Origin: a virus
Taxonomy: Duplodnaviria > Caudoviricetes
Virus record (IMG/VR): IMGVR_UViG_3300048838_001102
Location: 1 to 58,038 of that record
Length of the DNA: 58,038 nucleotides
Strand: one strand, 5' to 3'
Part shown: positions 33,630-58,038 of the stretch, one piece after another
Layout: every line of letters begins with the position of its first letter
Numbering within the stretch: the first letter of the stretch is position 1
Made by a program: the position numbers and the translations under genes
Notes under the pieces: generated by a model
Told to the model about the DNA's origin: nothing
Database searches by the model: none
Seen by the model: the letters and a program-made list of their open reading frames with translations, nothing else

Positions 33630-33659
33630 ATATTATTCCATATCGGTAAAGCATGTCAA
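33630..33659 (-). promoter_or_regulatory. Sigma70-like promoter for the terminase/late operon
   Basis: TTGACA-18-TAATAT on the minus strand. Confidence 0.6.
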
Positions 33660-33670
33660 CACTTTTGATG

Positions 33671-33700
33671 TTGACGCCGGACGCATTTGGACAGTACAAC
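33671..33700 (+). promoter_or_regulatory. Promoter of the recombinase operon (shared ACAG-TA motif)
   Basis: TTGACG-N14-ACAG-TACAAC. Confidence 0.55.
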
Positions 33701-33741
33701 AGCCCTATGCCCCAACACACCAAGAAAAAGGAGAGTTAATC

Positions 33742-34383
33742 GTGAACCCATCCGACGCACCAACCGCGGTATCAAAAAACCCCAACCACCCGGCAAAAGG
33801 ATCATCCATCCGCACCGACCCGATCCGCAATAAAAAAGACATCGAAAAAATTCTGGCCCTTCTGTCCGGCAACCCGCGCGACTCGGCGCTGTTTATCCTG
33901 GGCATCCACACCAACCTGCGCGCCTCGGACATCGTGGCCCTTACCGTCGGGCAGGTGGCGCACCTTGAGCCGGGCCAGGAGCTTGTCACACGCGATAAAA
34001 AGACCTCACGCTACATGGTCCGCAGCCTTGCCGAACCAGTAGTAAGAGCCCTTCGCCGCTGGCTATCCGTTCACCCGCGCGGAACCGACAAAAACGCCCC
34101 GCTGTTTCTCAGCCAAAGAAGCGGCGCGGCCTTGACCGCCCCGGCCTTGAGCCGCAAGGTCAAAGCCTGGTGCGCCCAAGCCGGTGTCACCGGCGGCAAT
34201 TACAGCAGTCACAGCTTGCGCAAAACCTTTGCCTACCACGCGTTGAACACTTTTAACCAGCCCGTCCACCTTGTTTCCGCTGCGCTGGGGCACAAGCAGC
34301 TTGCCACGACCTTAACCTACCTTGGCGTGCAAGACCGCCAGATCCGCCAGCTTTTTATGAACACCATCACCGACACCAAATAA
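33742..34383 (+). CDS. Short tyrosine recombinase (catalytic domain only; resolvase/FimB-like size)
   Basis: TNLRASD (R), DKKT (K), HSLRKT (HxxR), LGH, TLTY (Y); 213 aa, no arm-binding domain. Confidence 0.92.
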   Translation: MNPSDAPTAVSKNPNHPAKGSSIRTDPIRNKKDIEKILALLSGNPRDSALFILGIHTNLRASDIVALTVGQVAHLEPGQELVTRDKKTSRYMVRSLAEPVVRALRRWLSVHPRGTDKNAPLFLSQRSGAALTAPALSRKVKAWCAQAGVTGGNYSSHSLRKTFAYHALNTFNQPVHLVSAALGHKQLATTLTYLGVQDRQIRQLFMNTITDTK

Positions 34384-35280: not shown

Positions 35281-35514
35281 TTTTATCGCCGGCTTTACCC
35301 ATTTTTTCCTGTAATGTTAACAATTTAGAAGTTTGGTGCCATTTAATTTGTACGACGCGCGCCATTAGGGGAATCGACTTGCCAACCCCGGCCCCCTATT
35401 CCGTTTTTCGGCCCCCTATATTGTCCGATTCACCCCGAATCGACCGTTTTTCCTGGAAGCTTGCTAACTTTCTGAAAAAGTTGCCGAACCTGATATGAGG
35501 CGTTTACCTTATTA

Positions 35515-35527
35515 AATCAATGCCTTA
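35515..35527 (+). promoter_or_regulatory. IHF-consensus site
   Basis: AATCAA-TGCC-TTA fits WATCAANNNNTTR. Confidence 0.4.
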
Positions 35528-35579
35528 CCTGGTTTTTTCCTGGCCTGCGGTTTTTCCTGGCCCGGCCTGGCAAGTGCCT

Positions 35580-35646
35580 ATAAAAAACTTGCACTGTGTC
35601 ATTTTTTACACACTGTGTCATTTTTTACACAGTGCAAGTTTTTTAT
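35580..35646. repeat. 20-bp perfect inverted repeat enclosing a duplicated 19-mer
   Basis: ATAAAAAACTTGCACTGTGT ... ACACAGTGCAAGTTTTTTAT; CACTGTGTCATTTTTTACA at 35592 and 35611. Confidence 0.9.
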
Positions 35647-35735
35647 TGCACCTCGCGTGCGAATCCGCGATGTCTTAAACGTAATACGTATTACAATTGT
35701 ACAACCGCCTGTAATCCTTATATCTTTTAACTGAA

Positions 35736-35751
35736 TGTTTCACGTGAAACA
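35736..35751. promoter_or_regulatory. parS: Chromosomal-type parS site
   Basis: Perfect 16-bp palindrome TGTTTCACGTGAAACA, the ParB/Spo0J consensus. Confidence 0.9.
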
Positions 35752-35821
35752 AAAAAAGGTAACAGTTACTTTTTGCAATTTGCAAAAAAGGTAACAGTTA
35801 CCTTTTTGCAATTTGCAAAAA
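35752..35821. repeat. Tandem duplication of two interlocked palindromes
   Basis: GGTAAC-A-GTTAC(C) twice, alternating with TTTTTGCAA-T-TTGCAAAAA twice. Confidence 0.9.
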
Positions 35822-35848
35822 TCAACCGGGCGAAACAGCGCGCCAGAT

Positions 35849-35971
35849 CCGCCGGGTTACGATTGCCGCCGTAAAAAAACTGATTAACTCATAATAGCAC
35901 GAAAAAAAGATTGACAAGCACATTTTACCGGCATAAAGTAAAATCAATACGCTGGAAAAACCACAAACGCC
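35849..35971 (+). repeat. 123-bp exact direct repeat, copy 1 (contains promoter TTGACA-17-TAAAGT at 35911..35939)
   Basis: Identical to 38913..39035. Confidence 0.95.
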
Positions 35972-35987
35972 GAAAGGAGAAAAAACC

Positions 35988-36227
35988 ATGCTCGCAATCA
36001 TTACGGAACCACGCGACGACGGAACATACGACGACGTTGGAACGAACCATCGGATCATGCAATCCAAGTACAAATCTATCCGCACCTTACTCCGATATGG
36101 CGTCCCAGACCACTTTAAAGGCACGTTACGCGTCGAAACGTGGCCGTCCATTCACTCATTTTACACAGATGAAAAACCGAGCTGGACGTTCTACGCCCAC
36201 AAAGAACACTGGTACCCCCGCCGATAA
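35988..36227 (+). CDS. Small early hypothetical protein
   Basis: Strong GAAAGGAG RBS downstream of promoter. Confidence 0.75.
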   Translation: MLAIITEPRDDGTYDDVGTNHRIMQSKYKSIRTLLRYGVPDHFKGTLRVETWPSIHSFYTDEKPSWTFYAHKEHWYPRR

Positions 36228-36429: not shown

Positions 36430-36459
36430 AAACCACAAACGCCGAAAGGAGAAAAAACC

Positions 36460-38688: not shown

Positions 38689-38958
38689 ATGATAGAGAAA
38701 AAGGAGCTACAAGACCTGATCGATCAAAACGCTAAATTTAAAAACGCCTACTTTTGGACCCCGCCGGCAAACGCTTCCGGCCGCCGCTCTTATGAGCAAT
38801 ATAACAGCCGACACCTGCTCGGCGCCTATAATGGCCATGATATCGATTGCAGTCTGGATATCTCATGCTCATGCAAAAATATTTATGTCAGCCGAAAATT
38901 TGAAATCGACGGCCGCCGGGTTACGATTGCCGCCGTAAAAAAACTGATTAACTCATAA
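38689..38958 (+). CDS. Early hypothetical protein whose 3' end forms part of the 123-bp repeat
   Basis: AAGGAG RBS, 89 aa. Confidence 0.75.
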   Translation: MIEKKELQDLIDQNAKFKNAYFWTPPANASGRRSYEQYNSRHLLGAYNGHDIDCSLDISCSCKNIYVSRKFEIDGRRVTIAAVKKLINS

Positions 38959-39035
38959 TAGCACGAAAAAAAGATTGACAAGCACATTTTACCGGCATAA
39001 AGTAAAATCAATACGCTGGAAAAACCACAAACGCC
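38913..39035 (+). repeat. 123-bp exact direct repeat, copy 2
   Basis: Identical to 35849..35971. Confidence 0.95.
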
Positions 39036-39491: not shown

Positions 39492-39534
39492 AAGCCGACA
39501 CAAACTTTAGTTCCAGGTTTGTGTCGGCTTTTTT
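39492..39534 (+). terminator. Intrinsic terminator ending the early array
   Basis: AAGCCGACACAAAC / GTTTGTGTCGGCTT stem followed by a T-run. Confidence 0.85.
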
Positions 39535-39614: not shown

Positions 39615-40045
39615 ACGGGTGACGGTGTGACGGGGTGCCGTCAAGGCACCCGTTCACCCGTTCACGACCCCTTAAGGCTTGAACGGCTGAACGGATTTTC
39701 TTGAACGGATTTCGTACTATGTGATTTTTTATCCAATAACCACCGGCACTTACAGCTAAACTTTAGCTAAACTCCTGGCTTTCCGACGGGCCTTGAACGG
39801 GTGGTGAACGTGTCGAATTTAGCCCAAAAACGGGCTAAAACGCGTTATATTTTCTTGGCGAGTCCTTAACTATTGAGTAATTTCCGGCACTTACACGTGA
39901 ACAATTTTTGAATGAGTCAAAATAAATTTTGAACGGATTCGTGAACGGGGTTCGTGCTATGCTGATTTTACACTTCTAATAATTTCGGGTAGTTACGGTG
40001 AACGACTTTTTGAACGGATTTTGAACGGGGTTCGTACTATATGAA
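39615..40045. repeat. Iteron-rich candidate replication origin
   Basis: Ten TGAACG on +, two inverted CCGTTCA, three TTCGTRCTAT, two CCGGCACTTACA; adjacent to primase-helicase. Confidence 0.75.
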
Positions 40046-40209: not shown

Positions 40210-42237
40210 CTAAGTTTCCGGCGCTACTTTTTTATCAGGGTGAAAAAATACCCGGTCATCGATCATCTCATAGGTGCCTTCCGGCCGTACAAGGGGCACC
40301 CCCAGAAACTCTCTGATGCGCCGTCGAACCGTTGAAACGCTGCCCTCGTCAAGTAGCTCATCGGCGAATGCCCTCCTGGCGATCTGGTACGCACTGATGC
40401 CTTTGCCTTTTCGCGACTCCCGGCAATGCGACACAATGCGCGCCACCACCTGGCCCAGATACTCATCGCCGGTTTCCTTCCTTACTTTGGACAGATCCGC
40501 CATCACCAGCACCGGGGTTGTTTCGGTATGGTCGAAAAACAGCTTTTCCGACATCTTTTGATACCACACGGTGTCCTCGCCCGGCGGGGCGTATGACTGC
40601 TTGGCTTTGTCGAGCCGAACGTACCAATCGGCCTTGCCGGCCGCCAGGCCGTACTTTGGCGCATCGGTCGGCGCCATCGGATACAGGGTGTGATACACCC
40701 GGGCAACACCCGCAAAAGCGGATCCACCCCGGCCTTTGTCCATGTTGCCGGGGTCGGCTTTGCCCTTGCTGGTGTGATGGATCACCCCGACGCAGCACTC
40801 GGTCTGCCGCGCGATCTCACGCAGCGCAACGCCGACTATTTTAATGGCGTCGTTGTCGTTTTCCGCTACCGTGTGGATCTCAGCCAGCGGGTCCACAATA
40901 AACAGGCCGATTTTACCTTTAATGATGGTGTTTTTGACGAACTCGATCGCGTTGGCATTGATGGCCGGGCGCCCGCGGGTGTCGGCCGTAACGATTTTCA
41001 GATCCAGTTTGTCGCCGGTGGTGTAGACCAATCCCCGTAGATCCTCGGTTGACAGGTTAAAACGCTTTTTGATGGCGTAAACCCGTTTTGCGATTGTGTT
41101 GTAGGTTTCCTCGGCCGAGTGATACCATACGTTGGTTTTACGGGACACAACACCGTGGCAGATGTCTTTTTTGCCGGTTGCGATGGCAACGGCTTCGAGC
41201 AGTGACATCAAACTTTTGCCGACTCCCGGCGGCGCGGCTGTTGCGGTAACCTGGCCGGTCAGGTAGCGGTACTTTAGCAGCCAGTTGTCCGGGGTAAGGC
41301 CCGATAGGGTGATGGCGCTTGCTCGGGCGAAAATCGATTCTCCGGGCCTTTGGGTGATGTCTGTTTCTTCCGGGGTGGCGCCGGTGGGGAACATCTCGGC
41401 AACGGTGGGTTGGCGGCTGATACCGAGGGCGGCCGTGAACTCGTCTTGCGCGCGATCGGCACAGTGGGCGTGCAGGCAATGGAAATTACCGGTGGTGTAG
41501 CCGTGCGTGTGCGGGATAAAATAAACCGCGTCAGCGTCACCGTCGCCGGTGGTGTGCTCGTCGGCAAACGGGCAGGTGATGCCGATCTTGCCGTTGCCAA
41601 AGTTGCGCCGGACCATGCCGTGCTTGACCAGGGCCTGGTAGATCGGGTCGTCATTTTCGGCTTGGCGGATGGCGGTTTGGCGGGTTGATTTGGGCGGCCC
41701 GGCCAATACGGCCAGGTGGGCTTTGACATGATCGGGCAACGGGGTGATCTTGTCACCGTTTAATTTGTTGCCGGTCAGGGTTAAAAATCCTTTGGTGCAA
41801 AAAACTTCCACACCGGGGGTCCGCCGGTTCTCGTAAAACCCCTCATAGAACGCACGTAGGCCGTTTCCGGATGGGGATATTTCGGCGTAGGTGCCAGCGA
41901 TCAGATCACGCCGGGGGTCCAGCGCGTCCGGGCCTGCGGCGTCTGCGCCGATGTCGTCTAAATCGATGCCGACCAAGCCCAGCTCCGGGGTCATGGCAAT
42001 GCCGATGCCATCGTAATCGAACATATCGGCGGTGTTTACCGCATCCTCGAATGACGATAGGGATGATATGTCCTCGGGGCTGCCGTGTTCGCCGCGGCGG
42101 ACCTGGCCGTTGGTGTAAAACGGGATTTTTCTGGGCTTTTTTGATGGGTTAGACGGATCCGGAACATATTTCCAGACCAGGAAATTTTTGTGCCGTTTGA
42201 GCGCGGCGGGGATGTTGCGGACATCGCCGGTACTCAT
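40210..42237 (-). CDS. Primase-polymerase (AEP, NrS-1-like) fused to Zn module and RepA/AAA_25 helicase
   Basis: GIDLDD, YAEISPSGNGLR; CPF..EH..CLHAHC; APPGVGKS, IVDP, IHH..K, RGGSA; C-terminal HTH-like region. Confidence 0.9.
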   Translation of the reverse strand: MSTGDVRNIPAALKRHKNFLVWKYVPDPSNPSKKPRKIPFYTNGQVRRGEHGSPEDISSLSSFEDAVNTADMFDYDGIGIAMTPELGLVGIDLDDIGADAAGPDALDPRRDLIAGTYAEISPSGNGLRAFYEGFYENRRTPGVEVFCTKGFLTLTGNKLNGDKITPLPDHVKAHLAVLAGPPKSTRQTAIRQAENDDPIYQALVKHGMVRRNFGNGKIGITCPFADEHTTGDGDADAVYFIPHTHGYTTGNFHCLHAHCADRAQDEFTAALGISRQPTVAEMFPTGATPEETDITQRPGESIFARASAITLSGLTPDNWLLKYRYLTGQVTATAAPPGVGKSLMSLLEAVAIATGKKDICHGVVSRKTNVWYHSAEETYNTIAKRVYAIKKRFNLSTEDLRGLVYTTGDKLDLKIVTADTRGRPAINANAIEFVKNTIIKGKIGLFIVDPLAEIHTVAENDNDAIKIVGVALREIARQTECCVGVIHHTSKGKADPGNMDKGRGGSAFAGVARVYHTLYPMAPTDAPKYGLAAGKADWYVRLDKAKQSYAPPGEDTVWYQKMSEKLFFDHTETTPVLVMADLSKVRKETGDEYLGQVVARIVSHCRESRKGKGISAYQIARRAFADELLDEGSVSTVRRRIREFLGVPLVRPEGTYEMIDDRVFFHPDKKVAPET

Positions 42238-42316
42238 GGCGCCACCACATATATTGGCATGGGGGTATCCTCCTTTACCCGGTTAAAGAGAGCGGAAAAA
42301 TAGACCGACAGTTTAC

Positions 42317-42346
42317 AGCATACAGTTCGAGGGGTTGGCAAGTCAA
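42317..42346 (-). promoter_or_regulatory. Promoter of the primase-helicase gene
   Basis: TTGACT-18-TATGCT. Confidence 0.6.
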
Positions 42347-42437
42347 TAAAAAGAAACCCCGTAGTGTGATAAGGAGGTGGTATCACACTACGGGGCCACG
42401 CCAAAAGAAAGGAGAGTGTGGTGGATAGGCCGCGCTC
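42347..42437 (-). ncRNA. Predicted ~90-nt small RNA with anti-Shine-Dalgarno motifs
   Basis: Own promoter (42473..42444); 15-bp perfect hairpin with loop CCACCUCCU followed by U-run; second motif CUCUCCUUUC. Confidence 0.5.
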
Positions 42438-42509
42438 ACCAACAACCTACTGTACCGGGGTGGGGTGTGTCAAGCATAAAAAACAATTTCGCTATTGCGC
42501 GATTTTAGG

Positions 42510-42539
42510 TTGACAAGGATTGTTTGTAGACAGTAGGGT
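42510..42539 (+). promoter_or_regulatory. Promoter of the replication operon
   Basis: TTGACA-N14-ACAG-TAGGGT. Confidence 0.6.
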
Positions 42540-42596
42540 GGGGTCGTGGAGTTAAGGCAAGGCGGAATGAAACTTTTTAAGGAAAAGGGAGGTCGT

Positions 42597-42827
42597 ATGA
42601 CGAAACTTTGCAAGGACTGCGCGCATTACCGAGGCGACGATAAAGACGGATACGGGCTTAAAACGTGTTTGAATGAAAAAGTAAACGCGTATCACAGCTA
42701 TTTCCTGGTGGATGCAAACCCGAAGTACGCCGTGGAATGCACCGACGCGAGGGGCGGTGGCTTTTTCGCGCGGTTTTACAAAGCGTGCGGCCCGAGCGGA
42801 AAACTTTTTAAGGAAAAGGAGACGTAG
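42597..42827 (+). CDS. Small Cys-rich protein
   Basis: GGGAGG RBS; CKDCAHY..C..C..CGPSGKLF. Confidence 0.75.
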   Translation: MTKLCKDCAHYRGDDKDGYGLKTCLNEKVNAYHSYFLVDANPKYAVECTDARGGGFFARFYKACGPSGKLFKEKET

Positions 42828-42830
42828 GTA

Positions 42831-42983
42831 ATGGTTTTCACCGCGGCGGAGTTTTTCGGTTTTGCGGCGTTGTGCCTTTTCGTGGGCGCTGGGGTCGGGT
42901 TGTTCGCTGGCGGGTTGTGCGCGGCGGCCAGGTGCAACGATTGCGTGTTTTTCAAAAAGGAAATGGAGGATGAAGATGTATAA
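42831..42983 (+). CDS. 50-aa membrane protein
   Basis: Hand translation MVFTAAEFFGFAALCLFVGAGVGLFAGGLCAAAR... Confidence 0.6.
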   Translation: MVFTAAEFFGFAALCLFVGAGVGLFAGGLCAAARCNDCVFFKKEMEDEDV

Positions 42984-43266
42984 ACGGCCGAGCAGGATGC
43001 AAAATTACGCCAGGCTTGACCGCATATGGGCGCCGTTTCGCTACTACGAAGACAAGATCGCGGTGGCGCGCAAACATGGTTTTTTGTCATGGTATGAATT
43101 TATTGTGGAAGCATATGCCCAACTGCAATCCTGTTATAAAATCGCGGCTATCACCGGCATGAGCGTTGCCGGAATACGGGAGACAGTGCGAAAATTCGGC
43201 ATCGAAACAGCCGGCGCCGGAACGGGGTGGTACGATCGGTGCGGAAAGAAAAGGAGAAGGGTATGA
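42970..43266 (+). CDS. Small HTH DNA-binding protein
   Basis: SCYKIAAITGMSVAGIRETVRKFGI. Confidence 0.6.
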   Translation: MKMYKRPSRMQNYARLDRIWAPFRYYEDKIAVARKHGFLSWYEFIVEAYAQLQSCYKIAAITGMSVAGIRETVRKFGIETAGAGTGWYDRCGKKRRRV

Positions 43267-51119: not shown

Positions 51120-53264
51120 ATGCGCGTTGAGCAGGCGGTAATTGATTTTGAAACAAGATCCACGGTTGATTTGACTGTCACTGGCGTATGGCCGTATGCT
51201 GCTCACCCGTCTACTGAAATCATGTGTTTATCGGTAGCCGTTAATGCAGCGCGGCCCCTTTTATGGATACCGGATAAATTCTATCGCCTGGTGTCCGGCC
51301 TAAAACTCGAATATGAAACAATCACTGAATCCCGACTTCTCGGTATCTTATCACAGGCTGAAAAAGTAATCGCGTTCAATGCTCAGTTTGAATTTGTCAT
51401 CTGGAATAATCTTGCGGTTCCGCGCCGCAATTGGCCGGCGCTGCTACTTGAAAAGCTTTACGACGTGCAGGCTCAATGCGCGTATCATGCGCTACCACTT
51501 AATCTGGACATGGCCGGCCGGGCGCTTGGGCTATCGCTGGTAAAAGATTCAACCGGGCACAAGGTAATGCTCAAGTTGTGTAAACCCCGCAAGCCGAAAA
51601 AAGGCGAAGACCTTGATAAAATATATTGGCATGAAAAACCAACGGATCTGGTAACACTGTTCAACTATTGTGGCAAGGATGCCGAAGCCGAGCGGGCCAT
51701 TTACCATACCTTGCCGCAACTGCCGGAATACGAGCGGCGGATATGGCTCATGGACCAGCGGATAAACGCTCGCGGGGTGCCGGTTGATATCGTGGCGGTC
51801 AAGGCCGTTGTCAAAGTGGTCAAGCAATACGAGCAAAAGATGCTTGACGATTTCGCGGTAGCGGTCAATGGCGAAGTCTCCGGGCCACGCTCGTATGTCG
51901 CGCTGCGCAATTGGGTCAACGAAAAAGCGGGCCTCAATCTGGACAGTCTGGATAAAAACACCACCGCGGCGCTGATCAAGGAAGGCAAGCTGGATGAAAA
52001 CGTTCTGCTAGCGCTCCAAATCAAATCCGAGCTATCCAAATCGTCGGTTGCCAAGCTGGAAGCTATGGACGCTTTCGCGTCAGTAGATGGCCGCGCCCGC
52101 GGGTTGTTCAAGTACCATGCCGCCGCCACCGGACGCGCCGGCGGGGTTGCGGTACAACCCCAGAACCTACCCCGAGATTCCTACACCCCCGAAGTCTATG
52201 ATGGGGTTATCGAGTCGTTCCGCGATGTAGATTTAGAATGCCTTGATATGATGTATGACGGCCCGTTTTACGCTGCGTCACGCTGCATACGCGGGTCGTT
52301 TCAAGCCGAAGAAGGGTGTCGCTTCCTATGCGGGGATTTCAGCTCTATCGAAGCGATCGGGCTGGCGCAATTGGCCGGGCAGCAATCCACGCTGGATACT
52401 TTTGCCGCCAGGCGGTGTTTGTATAAAACCGCTGCGGCTGAGTTATTCAATAAGCCGTATGATCTCGTAAGTAAAGCTGAACGGCAGGTATCCAAGTGTG
52501 AAATTTTAGCCGCGGGTTACAACGGAGGCATAGGTGCGTATGCCACCATGGCGCAAACATATCGTGTAGATCTTGAAACACTACCCCCGATTATACTACC
52601 GATGGCTACTGGGGAAGAGCTTGATGGTCAATACGGTGCTAAAGCTTTAGCCGCCAATTACCTGTCACGCAATCCAGGTGCTATGTCGTTGGATGCGGCT
52701 ATCGCGTGCGATATCATAAAGCGTAGATGGAGAGCCAATAACGAAAAAGTGGTAGAGTTTTGGGGCGGGATAAAAGAAGCGTCTATCGGCGCTGTGATGA
52801 ATCCGGGCAGTCTGTTTTCATTTCGCGGCATAAAGTTTAAAGTTCATCGCGGGTTTCTAAAATGCCTGCTGCCCAGCGGTAGAATACTGCATTATTTTCA
52901 ACCCCGGCTTGAGGACGTGGACGCGCCATGGGGTGATACCACAAGAGCTATTACCTTTATGGGGTTGAAAGTTGTTGAGGGCAAGACCACTCGGCAGTGG
53001 TCGCGGCTGTCTACACATTCTGGAAAAATTACGGAAAATATAGTTCAGGCGTTCTGCCGCGATCTGTTGATGGAAGCGATGTTGCGGCTTGAGGACGCCG
53101 GCTATCCGGTTGTGATGCATGTTCATGATGAGGCGGTCAGCGAACTTGAAAACGGCGTTGGAACTTTAGATGAGTTTTTGAAAATAATGGAGCAAGTACC
53201 CTCCTGGGCTGTCGGCATGCCGATACGGGCCGAGGGGTGGGAAGGAAGGAGATATCAGAAATGA
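51120..53264 (+). CDS. Family A DNA polymerase with 3'-5' exonuclease (APSE-like)
   Basis: IDFETRS, FNAQFE, Y...D; TGR, QPQNLPR, DFSSIE, RQVSK....GY, ENIVQA, HVHDE. Confidence 0.95.
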   Translation: MRVEQAVIDFETRSTVDLTVTGVWPYAAHPSTEIMCLSVAVNAARPLLWIPDKFYRLVSGLKLEYETITESRLLGILSQAEKVIAFNAQFEFVIWNNLAVPRRNWPALLLEKLYDVQAQCAYHALPLNLDMAGRALGLSLVKDSTGHKVMLKLCKPRKPKKGEDLDKIYWHEKPTDLVTLFNYCGKDAEAERAIYHTLPQLPEYERRIWLMDQRINARGVPVDIVAVKAVVKVVKQYEQKMLDDFAVAVNGEVSGPRSYVALRNWVNEKAGLNLDSLDKNTTAALIKEGKLDENVLLALQIKSELSKSSVAKLEAMDAFASVDGRARGLFKYHAAATGRAGGVAVQPQNLPRDSYTPEVYDGVIESFRDVDLECLDMMYDGPFYAASRCIRGSFQAEEGCRFLCGDFSSIEAIGLAQLAGQQSTLDTFAARRCLYKTAAAELFNKPYDLVSKAERQVSKCEILAAGYNGGIGAYATMAQTYRVDLETLPPIILPMATGEELDGQYGAKALAANYLSRNPGAMSLDAAIACDIIKRRWRANNEKVVEFWGGIKEASIGAVMNPGSLFSFRGIKFKVHRGFLKCLLPSGRILHYFQPRLEDVDAPWGDTTRAITFMGLKVVEGKTTRQWSRLSTHSGKITENIVQAFCRDLLMEAMLRLEDAGYPVVMHVHDEAVSELENGVGTLDEFLKIMEQVPSWAVGMPIRAEGWEGRRYQK

Positions 53265-53833: not shown

Positions 53834-53863
53834 TTGACATTAAAAACACTCAGACAGTAAAGT
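53834..53863 (+). promoter_or_regulatory. Promoter with shared ACAG-TA motif
   Basis: TTGACA-N14-ACAG-TAAAGT. Confidence 0.6.
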
Positions 53864-53963
53864 GGGTTTAAACAAAACAGGAGGTTGCCATGTCGCTGAA
53901 TCATGTCTACCCCGAGGAAATTAAAACCCACGCAATCGAACGTCTGCTTAAAAAGGAAATGAA

Positions 53964-54497: not shown

Positions 54498-54868
54498 ATA
54501 AACTTTTTTACGAAAGGAGTTTTGCGGCTATGCAATCTAAGGGTATAAAGGCGCCCACCGGCGGGGAAAATTCTTGTAAGGGGCTCATCTTTCGCGCGCA
54601 TTGCGTAGAGTTCTACAGCGAAAAAGACGTGAAAAACGGCAACGGATACGTATTTACAAATGTTTTTCTTCAAAACGCGAAGCGGTTGACCATGCGTAAA
54701 CGGTTATCGTGTCCCGGATGTGGTTCCTGTTTGGCAATTAAAGAGGAAATGCGCCAGGCAGGGGATAATATACGCATAGAGGGTTTTGATCAAATCAAAG
54801 ACGGCGGTTATTACCAGATCGTGATGAACGAAGATGGTTTTATCGTCGTACCGTATGAAAGGGGGTGA
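54494..54868 (+). CDS. Hypothetical protein
   Basis: ATGA overlap; SCPGCGSC motif. Confidence 0.7.
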   Translation: MNKLFYERSFAAMQSKGIKAPTGGENSCKGLIFRAHCVEFYSEKDVKNGNGYVFTNVFLQNAKRLTMRKRLSCPGCGSCLAIKEEMRQAGDNIRIEGFDQIKDGGYYQIVMNEDGFIVVPYERG

Positions 54869-57026: not shown

Positions 57027-57362
57027 ATGAACAAGGAACAATTTATTGCAAAAGAGATAGAAAAAAATAAAGCCGCCTTCGGGCGGTGGTATTCTTCTAC
57101 AAAAAAAAACTCTGCTAATGAGATGAAATTAATTTTTGGAGAGCCACCACGGAATAAAGAAGAAACATTGCAACACGGCAACGCACTCGCAAATACCGGC
57201 AATTACCCGATTGGAACAAACGAATGTTTTAATGTCGGCATTGCCGGTGGGTGTGGACCTGAGTGCTTTGTGTATTTGGAAGGCGGATGCGATGTTCCAG
57301 ATGAAATGACTCCGCGCCTTGATGCGGCAGGCATGGAAATTCATAAACGGTTATATAGATAG
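57027..57362 (+). CDS. Hypothetical Cys-containing protein
   Basis: GGAGGTG RBS; its 3' half is the 156-bp repeat. Confidence 0.7.
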   Translation: MNKEQFIAKEIEKNKAAFGRWYSSTKKNSANEMKLIFGEPPRNKEETLQHGNALANTGNYPIGTNECFNVGIAGGCGPECFVYLEGGCDVPDEMTPRLDAAGMEIHKRLYR

Positions 57363-57367
57363 ACGGG
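57212..57367 (+). repeat. 156-bp exact direct repeat (second copy 57883..58038)
   Basis: TGGAACAAACGAATG...TAGATAGACGGG in both places. Confidence 0.95.
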
Positions 57368-57455
57368 TTGAGGCAACGTGCGACGCCGCGGTAAGGGTCA
57401 TAAAGCGCGACCCTGGCGGCGCTTGGCAAAATCCTTAAACGATCGGGGTGGATCG

Positions 57456-57863: not shown

Positions 57864-58038
57864 CGGTTGCAAATATGCAGGATGGAACAAACGAATGTTT
57901 TAATGTCGGCATTGCCGGTGGGTGTGGACCTGAGTGCTTTGTGTATTTGGAAGGCGGATGCGATGTTCCAGATGAAATGACTCCGCGCCTTGATGCGGCA
58001 GGCATGGAAATTCATAAACGGTTATATAGATAGACGGG

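Follow-up and report, generated by a model that had tools for sequence, protein, structure and literature searches.

Can a short stretch of non-coding DNA between two divergent transcription units give rise to a discrete regulatory RNA, and if so, which phage genes would that RNA control? The question is raised by a 360-bp gap in the window (the whole stretch of DNA analyzed here, which forms a complete virus record of 58,038 bp, bounded by direct terminal repeats and containing 51.7% G+C), where a preliminary description had proposed a minus-strand RNA acting in trans on Shine-Dalgarno (SD) sequences. On the left side of the gap, downstream of the candidate RNA unit, lies a gene for a primase/AAA_25 helicase (40210–42237, minus strand). 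On the right side, a plus-strand operon starts with an ATG at 42597 and encodes first a small Cys-rich protein and then a Dam methylase, an SNF2 helicase, a radical-SAM protein, an exonuclease and a DNA polymerase. The structural genes occupy the minus strand from ~2.3 to 33.6 kb, and a plus-strand module at 33.7–39.5 kb is composed of ORFans with a small tyrosine recombinase at its head. A search for tRNA and tmRNA genes found none.

Predicted promoters of the divergent region

Direct reading confirmed the minus-strand promoter of the preliminary description (TTGACA-N14-ACAG-TAGGTT; 42444–42473) exactly as described, with the −35 hexamer TTGACA at 42473–42468, an 18-nt spacer ending in ACAG, and TAGGTT at 42449–42444. 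By comparison with the sigma-70 consensus, its −35 hexamer is perfect and its spacer has 18 nt, whereas the −10 hexamer matches at only three of six positions, so that a generic promoter scan does not report this site. A combination of pattern counts and alignment placed it in a small family. The pattern TTGACA-N16–19-TAGGNT is found in the window only twice, back to back, in this very gap (0.04 expected; two copies reached in none of 100 shuffles), the second copy being the divergent twin that serves the rightward operon (TTGACA-N14-ACAG-TAGGGT; 42510–42539, plus strand). A broader pattern, TTGAC-N13–17-ACAGTA, has four copies versus 0.06 expected (four reached in 0/100 shuffles), including one before the recombinase gene (TTGACG-N14-ACAG-TACAAC; 33671–33700, plus strand) and one before an ATG near 53890 (53834–53863, plus strand). 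The spacing is identical in all four (TTGAC-N15-ACAGTA); all are intergenic, and three lie 27–58 nt upstream of a start codon. The existence of a four-member family at identical spacing argues for the leftward site, predicted from sequence patterns, being functional as a member of a phage-specific promoter class, despite its weak −10 by the generic consensus. This class also provides a testable map of the co-regulated transcription units of the phage. A second leftward promoter-like site, TCTACA-N17-TAAAAT (42502–42530, minus strand), has a predicted start at ~42495.

The sequence GGGTGGGGT shared by both divergent promoters was considered as an additional signal and rejected, as it is not enriched (17 copies with one mismatch allowed versus 14 expected). 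Another back-to-back promoter pair is present at 33630–33700, where TTGACA-N18-TAATAT points leftward to the structural genes and the family promoter rightward to the recombinase; the −35 boxes of this pair are arranged as a 7-bp inverted repeat. A repeated leader, AAACTTTTTAAGGAAAAGG, lies before each of the two genes that open the rightward operon (42570–42588 and 42801–42819) and recurs in a degenerate form before a third gene (54500–54518).

The statement that no protein repressor is evident stands in a limited sense: scans of the submitted proteins against Pfam, PHROG and NCBIfam detected no helix-turn-helix or repressor family, and, with most of these proteins being ORFans, the missing match is absence of evidence only. 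A 96-aa protein encoded at 42976–43266 (plus strand) contains a helix-turn-helix-looking stretch (…IAAITGMSVAGIRETVRKFG…) with no Pfam or NCBIfam match, and is possibly a DNA-binding regulator adjoining the switch region.

The predicted short transcript, its terminator and the primase gene

The leftward promoter is predicted to give rise to a non-coding transcript of ~90 nt (42348–42437, minus strand), with the 5′ end placed 7 nt after the −10 hexamer and the 3′ end in the U-run UUUCUUUUU (42348–42356). A codon-usage gene caller assigned no ORF between 42238 and 42596. The transcript would consist of a mostly unpaired CU-rich arm (RNA nt 20–41; 42397–42418), complementary to the recombinase leader (see below), and a terminator hairpin (42357–42395) detected by a stem search, by folding and by a genome-wide terminator scan, with CUCUCCUUUCUUUUGGCGU immediately 5′ of its stem. 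The two stem arms (42395–42381 and 42371–42357) are 15 nt long, 100% complementary and 9 nt apart, with flanking pairs extending them to 16–17 bp, and they enclose the 9-nt loop CCACCUCCU (42380–42372, minus strand). The earlier account of this unit (a length of ~90 nt, a perfect 15-bp stem, the loop and the U-run) was correct in each of these details. The fold of a 106-nt RNA has an energy of −37.6 kcal/mol (z −4.76), which was matched by none of 200 shuffles.

The segment at 42348–42395 combines a stable stem-loop with a U-run on the transcribed strand, the features that define an intrinsic terminator. No T-run follows the stem on the plus strand and, with the U-run confined to the minus strand, the terminator acts leftward only. 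At −27.8 kcal/mol, this hairpin is the strongest among six candidates (hairpin plus T-run) in the genome-wide scan. Together with a second strong terminator (39492–39530; −23.4 kcal/mol), which closes the 33.7–39.5 kb module, it is by far the strongest of the six, both having long perfect stems and large loops. A primase promoter-like site, TTGACT-N18-TATGCT (42317–42346, minus strand), starts immediately after the U-run, so that the primase need not rely on read-through. Overall, the combination of a family promoter, a strong terminator and a separate promoter-like site for the primase makes an independent promoter-to-terminator transcription unit, producing a small RNA without an ORF, a credible interpretation.

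The same anatomy could, in principle, serve for insulation only, with the leftward promoter being a divergent partner of the rightward one, the hairpin guarding the primase promoter, and the RNA representing a by-product whose anti-SD content is incidental. This possibility, which we consider doubtful, draws on the U-run directly abutting the −35 hexamer of the primase promoter-like site. It also draws on the similarly built terminator at 39492–39530 (a 14-bp perfect stem and an 11-nt loop), which has no anti-SD loop and indicates that this hairpin geometry is the ordinary terminator style of the phage. At the same time, it leaves unexplained why a promoter of a conserved class should be terminated 90 nt later.

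Several other elements are associated with the primase gene. The TTGACT-N18-TATGCT motif occurs twice, before the primase (42317–42346, minus strand) and within the opening codons of the ORF for DNA polymerase (51171–51200, plus strand), with GTATGCT common to both copies, and may represent a second promoter class, for replication genes. An 8-codon upstream ORF (MPIYVVAP; 42234–42260, minus strand) has a strong SD sequence, AAAGGAGG, and a TGA stop that overlaps the ATG of the primase (ATGA); this overlap and the lack of a separate SD sequence at the primase start suggest translational coupling between the two. Just downstream of the primase gene (39698–40040), 4–5 copies of a ~20-nt repeat (TTCTTGAACGGATTTCGTAC-like) and a second repeat family look like iterons of a replication origin.

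Runs with near-identical sequence were found in eight studies of wastewater, landfill and manure. All of them are kept as contigs, in which strand, ends and level are invisible, and contigs from RNA libraries may be DNA carry-over. In the metatranscriptome X18, two abutting contigs cover 41846–42496, including the 5′ part of the primase gene, the terminator and the whole predicted RNA. One of these (42215–42496, strandless), the sole contig of an RNA library to span the unit, crosses the terminator into the primase gene and, in the upstream direction, reaches 59 nt beyond the predicted start; DNA, read-through or a longer RNA could each be its source. Its end at 42496 coincides with the start at ~42495 predicted from the TCTACA-N17-TAAAAT site (42530–42502), and the −10 hexamer of the rightward promoter is closely followed by the start, at 42541, of a contig from another RNA run (X20); as transcription-start signals, both ends are weak hints. 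In the DNA run X3, the stretch 42329–42601 is not covered by any contig, and the contigs of X19 and X20 miss the unit, although a hole of this kind proves nothing.

These contigs bear on another interpretation, in which the element is a cis-acting leader or attenuator of the primase, and transcripts from 42437 or ~42495 would stop at the hairpin unless a factor permits read-through, as at PR′-tR′ of phage lambda with its Q protein. In lambda, the short 6S RNA arises as a side product of antitermination controlled by Q, and the genes beyond the terminator lack a promoter of their own. The locus described here is similar in having a promoter, then a close strong terminator, and a short RNA before genes, but it differs by the promoter-like site that follows the terminator, which itself argues against attenuation. 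The X18 contigs, continuous over 41846–42496 across the terminator and ending at the start predicted for TCTACA-N17-TAAAAT, are in keeping with this scenario, albeit a strandless contig may be DNA. In a read-through RNA, the ribosome site of the primase may be masked by the CU tracts, and two 8-bp perfect complements connect RNA nt 14–21 with positions −12 to −5 of the primase and nt 2–9 with positions +31 to +38, the former helix forming in the minimum free energy (MFE) fold of a 363-nt RNA. However, chance alone would give about as many 8-bp inverted repeats over 451 nt (~1.5 expected, by our estimate, versus two). Moreover, RNAs of 90, 106, 149 and 363 nt all kept the terminator in their MFE and centroid folds, with no competing antiterminator helix, and the primase leader is outside both the top 12 targets of the arm and the top 14 targets of the loop. 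While factor-dependent antitermination at the hairpin is conceivable, attenuation of the primase appears improbable on this evidence.

Complementarity to the recombinase leader and other leaders

The gene at 33742–34383 (plus strand, GTG start), whose leader is the best predicted target of the RNA, encodes a small (213 aa) Xer-like tyrosine recombinase, as assigned by Pfam, NCBIfam and a homologue search. The protein carries only the tyrosine-recombinase catalytic domain (PF00589, E = 2e-19); its assignment as Xer-like by NCBIfam is below every curated cut-off. The nearest phage homologues (~30% identity) are from Streptococcus, Bacillus and Clostridium phages, which is in keeping with a host of the Firmicutes type that makes strong use of SD sequences. 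Its role could be in either phage integration or dimer resolution. Among IMG/VR relatives of the recombinase (31–37% identity), two have the promoter motif, but it is located 1.8 kb away within coding sequence and is unrelated.

To score pairing, we used an IntaRNA-like scheme (the ViennaRNA duplex energy plus the opening energies of both partners) over 68 leaders of genes from the codon-usage gene caller, with the leader at 35988 added by hand. ORFs shorter than 40 aa, a doubtful ORF at 39008 and one leader running past the window start were left out of this set. The best predicted target is the 5′ leader of the recombinase together with its SD sequence (33715–33736, plus strand), ending 5 nt before the GTG start. 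RNA nt 20–41 would form 19 bp with it (one of them G-U), interrupted by two 1×1 mismatches, with a duplex energy of −25.9 kcal/mol and a total of −16.7 kcal/mol. This leader ranks first among the 68 and is also the best non-self match on both genome strands; its opening cost of 2.7 kcal/mol shows it to be accessible.

The preliminary description had proposed hybridization energy versus shuffled controls as a check, and by this measure pairing was not better than chance. The best energy of the arm (−16.7 kcal/mol) was reached by 42/222 shuffles, its top-three mean (−14.53 kcal/mol) by 44/222, and the count of 12 leaders scoring −10 kcal/mol or lower by 19/222; the best energy of the loop (−10.8 kcal/mol) was reached by 81 of 300 shuffled loops. 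These values count in favor of the insulator-only alternative. The base-by-base comparison shows something that insulation would leave unexplained: 18/21 Watson-Crick matches between the arm and the recombinase leader, a number reached by none of 1000 dinucleotide shuffles (maximum 17) and by only one of the 2684 natural 41-nt windows of the genome. With G-U pairs allowed (19/21), the match was reached by 37/1000 shuffles, and the local alignment score of 30 by 1/500. A blastn-short search recovered the match to the recombinase leader only as a 10-mer (E = 3.5), and the similarity is confined to 21 nt, which rules out a large duplication. Complementarity to the leader of the gene at 33742, a target that the preliminary description did not name, is the one statistically unusual pairing of this RNA. 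As for the proposed trans-acting anti-SD role, the exposed parts of the RNA do complement leaders, while the energy test gives it no support and the leaders originally named are weaker targets.

The reading that we prefer, although only tentatively and with somewhat less than even confidence, is that the unit makes a discrete small RNA and that the CU-rich arm of this RNA covers the SD sequence of the recombinase mRNA in trans and acts on related leaders of the same module more weakly. The ~90-nt RNA would be transcribed from a promoter of the TTGACA-N14-ACAGTA class and ended by the terminator directly before the separate primase promoter. Its mostly unpaired 5′ arm would base-pair with the leader and SD sequence of the recombinase mRNA and, less strongly, with related A/C-rich leaders of the plus-strand module at 33.7–39.5 kb. 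Such pairing would block ribosome loading and reduce translation, and the anti-SD loop of the terminator may offer a generic first contact. The anatomy of the unit, its promoter family, its terminator and its complementarity to the leader are observed; from them we infer the existence of a discrete RNA species, its pairing in vivo and the translational repression. If this reading is true, the recombinase, and possibly the whole gene module, would be controlled at the step of ribosome binding. A broader rule, that the RNA targets the first gene behind every family promoter, was ruled out, as only the recombinase leader pairs well (−6.0/−5.3 kcal/mol for the first rightward gene and −5.3/−7.5 kcal/mol for the gene after 53834).

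The arm-leader match could also have its origin on the opposite strand. Leader families exist in this phage (10 of the 68 leaders have a partner at ≥18/21 identity), so the plus strand at the arm could have arisen as a copy resembling a leader, with no selection for antisense pairing. In its strongest form, this alternative holds the plus strand to be the functional one, with a leader-like copy and an SD sequence driving a 30–31-codon ORF (GTG at 42418 or 42421, end at 42513) and the minus-strand complementarity being its mirror image. Indeed, the plus-strand sequence CACGCCAAAAGAAAGGAGAGTGTGGTG, with an SD sequence 3–6 nt before the GTG, resembles the recombinase leader. On the other hand, no promoter-like site is found upstream on the plus strand, and both the promoter and the terminator are on the minus strand. 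The ORF overlaps both divergent promoters and is not called by the codon-usage model, and the one substitution it has in X18 (42439) is non-synonymous. Taken together, these observations make a plus-strand function very hard to credit.

The loop reads CACCUCCUUA, which matches the 3′-terminal sequence of E. coli 16S rRNA, and the only exact AAGGAGGTG in the window is on the plus strand of the loop, a singularity that insulation alone would not account for. The loop does complement, as claimed, the GGAGGTG leaders at 130, 56404 and 57018 (CACCTCC on the minus strand), but at only about −10 kcal/mol. In fact, the CACCTCC 7-mer is not enriched in the window (5 found, 5.12 expected), again in line with the insulator alternative. 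The top-five mean energy of the loop (−9.29 kcal/mol) was reached by 9 of 300 shuffled loops. Genes with GGAGGTG leaders are located at copies of the terminal repeat, of which there are three (1–130, 57212–57370 and 57883–58038), the internal one 671 bp before the right end. A 12/14 match of the loop plus stem to the leader at 42597 was dismissed, as half of it is inside the stem and it is near chance by our estimate.

The repeated leaders that the RNA was originally thought to silence, namely ACGCCGAAAGGAGA at 35957 and 36429, are complementary to it only as secondary predicted targets in the pairing scan (35966–35981, 14 bp with a 4-nt bulge, and 36438–36453, both on the plus strand), with energies of −11.8 and −12.8 kcal/mol. 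A 620-bp non-coding region (35366–35987) is dense in direct and inverted repeats, among them GGTAACAGTTAC..TTTTTGCAATTTGCAAAAA, present twice, and a palindrome around CACTGTGTCATTTTTTACACA. This region could be regulatory or an attachment region, and it is followed by a TTGACA-N17-TAAAGT promoter within a 123-nt repeat that recurs at 38913–39035.

A more ambitious interpretation would unite loop and arm, making the RNA a mimic of the mRNA-docking tail of the ribosome with a recombinase-directed arm. As the RNA and its targets would share one promoter class, it would constitute an RNA-only feed-forward loop, a developmental switch without a protein repressor in a lineage lacking cultured relatives, that times or caps translation of the recombinase module and of leaders with strong SD sequences. 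We regard this as a long shot. The related proposal of RNA-based lysogeny or immunity found no support: no lysogeny module was found beyond the small Xer-like recombinase, and two scans of genome contigs (with P0002 and with the primase) revealed neither a prophage copy nor a host.

Relatives, known phage RNAs and natural variation

The search for relatives of this element was largely negative. Rfam 15 gave no match at gathering thresholds in the whole window and only chance-level matches around 42100–42800 (E 1.2–3.5, far below gathering). No match was obtained by blastn versus phage records, and searches of IMG/VR with the primase and SNF2 proteins yielded no relative. The exact hairpin pattern had no match in IMG/VR, and the arm-plus-loop pattern had none in JGI metagenomes or IMG/VR. 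Overall, phages, IMG/VR, JGI metagenomes and GTDB genomes yielded no relative with this element, the ~97% relatives (a cluster of nine proteins) being found only in ENA/Logan. To look further, a four-sequence alignment was used to collect 70 loci with distant primase relatives (about 25–48% identity), of which the 20 with a match starting at query residues 1–13 were examined. Their upstream regions contain no comparable hairpin and no CCUCC loop (0/20); three of the 20 have some hairpin with a T-run at least 357 nt upstream. A phage small RNA new to the Rfam families, with a function deduced from its sequence features, is plausible. If true, an uncultured wastewater/landfill/manure phage lineage without described relatives would possess a free-standing regulatory RNA that acts in trans.

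To our knowledge, trans action on phage genes is known for few phage small RNAs, the classic case being c4 of P1 and P7. As described in a review (PMC12197685), the c4 antisense RNA is a trans-acting phage RNA that pairs around the ribosome binding site of an mRNA through sequences exposed in unpaired regions and blocks translation. Accordingly, c4 is the closest known system in mode of action, both involving trans pairing at the ribosome site of a phage mRNA, which in the present case is predicted. The c4 RNA is cut from the same operon transcript as its target and controls an antirepressor and immunity. In contrast, the candidate RNA has its own promoter and terminator, its best predicted target belongs to a recombinase gene at a distance of 8.7 kb, and nothing points to a role in immunity; the lack of an Rfam family match further shows that it is not a c4 homologue.

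In its build, a short RNA from promoter to terminator, the candidate is more reminiscent of lambda OOP and P22 sar, which (PMC12197685) are ~70–80 nt long, have their own promoter and terminator, and lower a developmental-decision gene by pairing. These two are encoded opposite their targets and fully complementary to them, whereas the candidate RNA overlaps no gene, and its distant pairing is imperfect (19 bp, two mismatches). The loop, in turn, resembles the anti-SD motifs of bacterial small RNAs such as cuckoo/CcsR/NfeR1, RsaE/RoxS and RNAIII, in which CCUCC-type motifs in loops or single strands seed SD pairing (PMC4615179, PMC10746234 and PMC9266662). These bacterial RNAs are chromosomal and usually have several repeated motif loops; the candidate RNA, unlike them, has a single loop, that of the terminator, and none of their Rfam models matched it.

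The X18 variant is ~97% identical to the window and differs from it by seven substitutions and one deletion within 42215–42496. Five substitutions and the deletion are in 42250–42303, one substitution is at 42439, and one G>T has no listed position. All six listed substitutions and the deletion are outside 42348–42437, so that the 90-nt RNA contains at most one change, with 2.6 expected if the changes were evenly spread; by a binomial estimate, the probability is ~0.05 for zero changes and 0.22 for at most one. The lower number of changes within the RNA is suggestive and no more. One of the substitutions (42250) alters a single codon of the MPIYVVAP ORF upstream of the primase.
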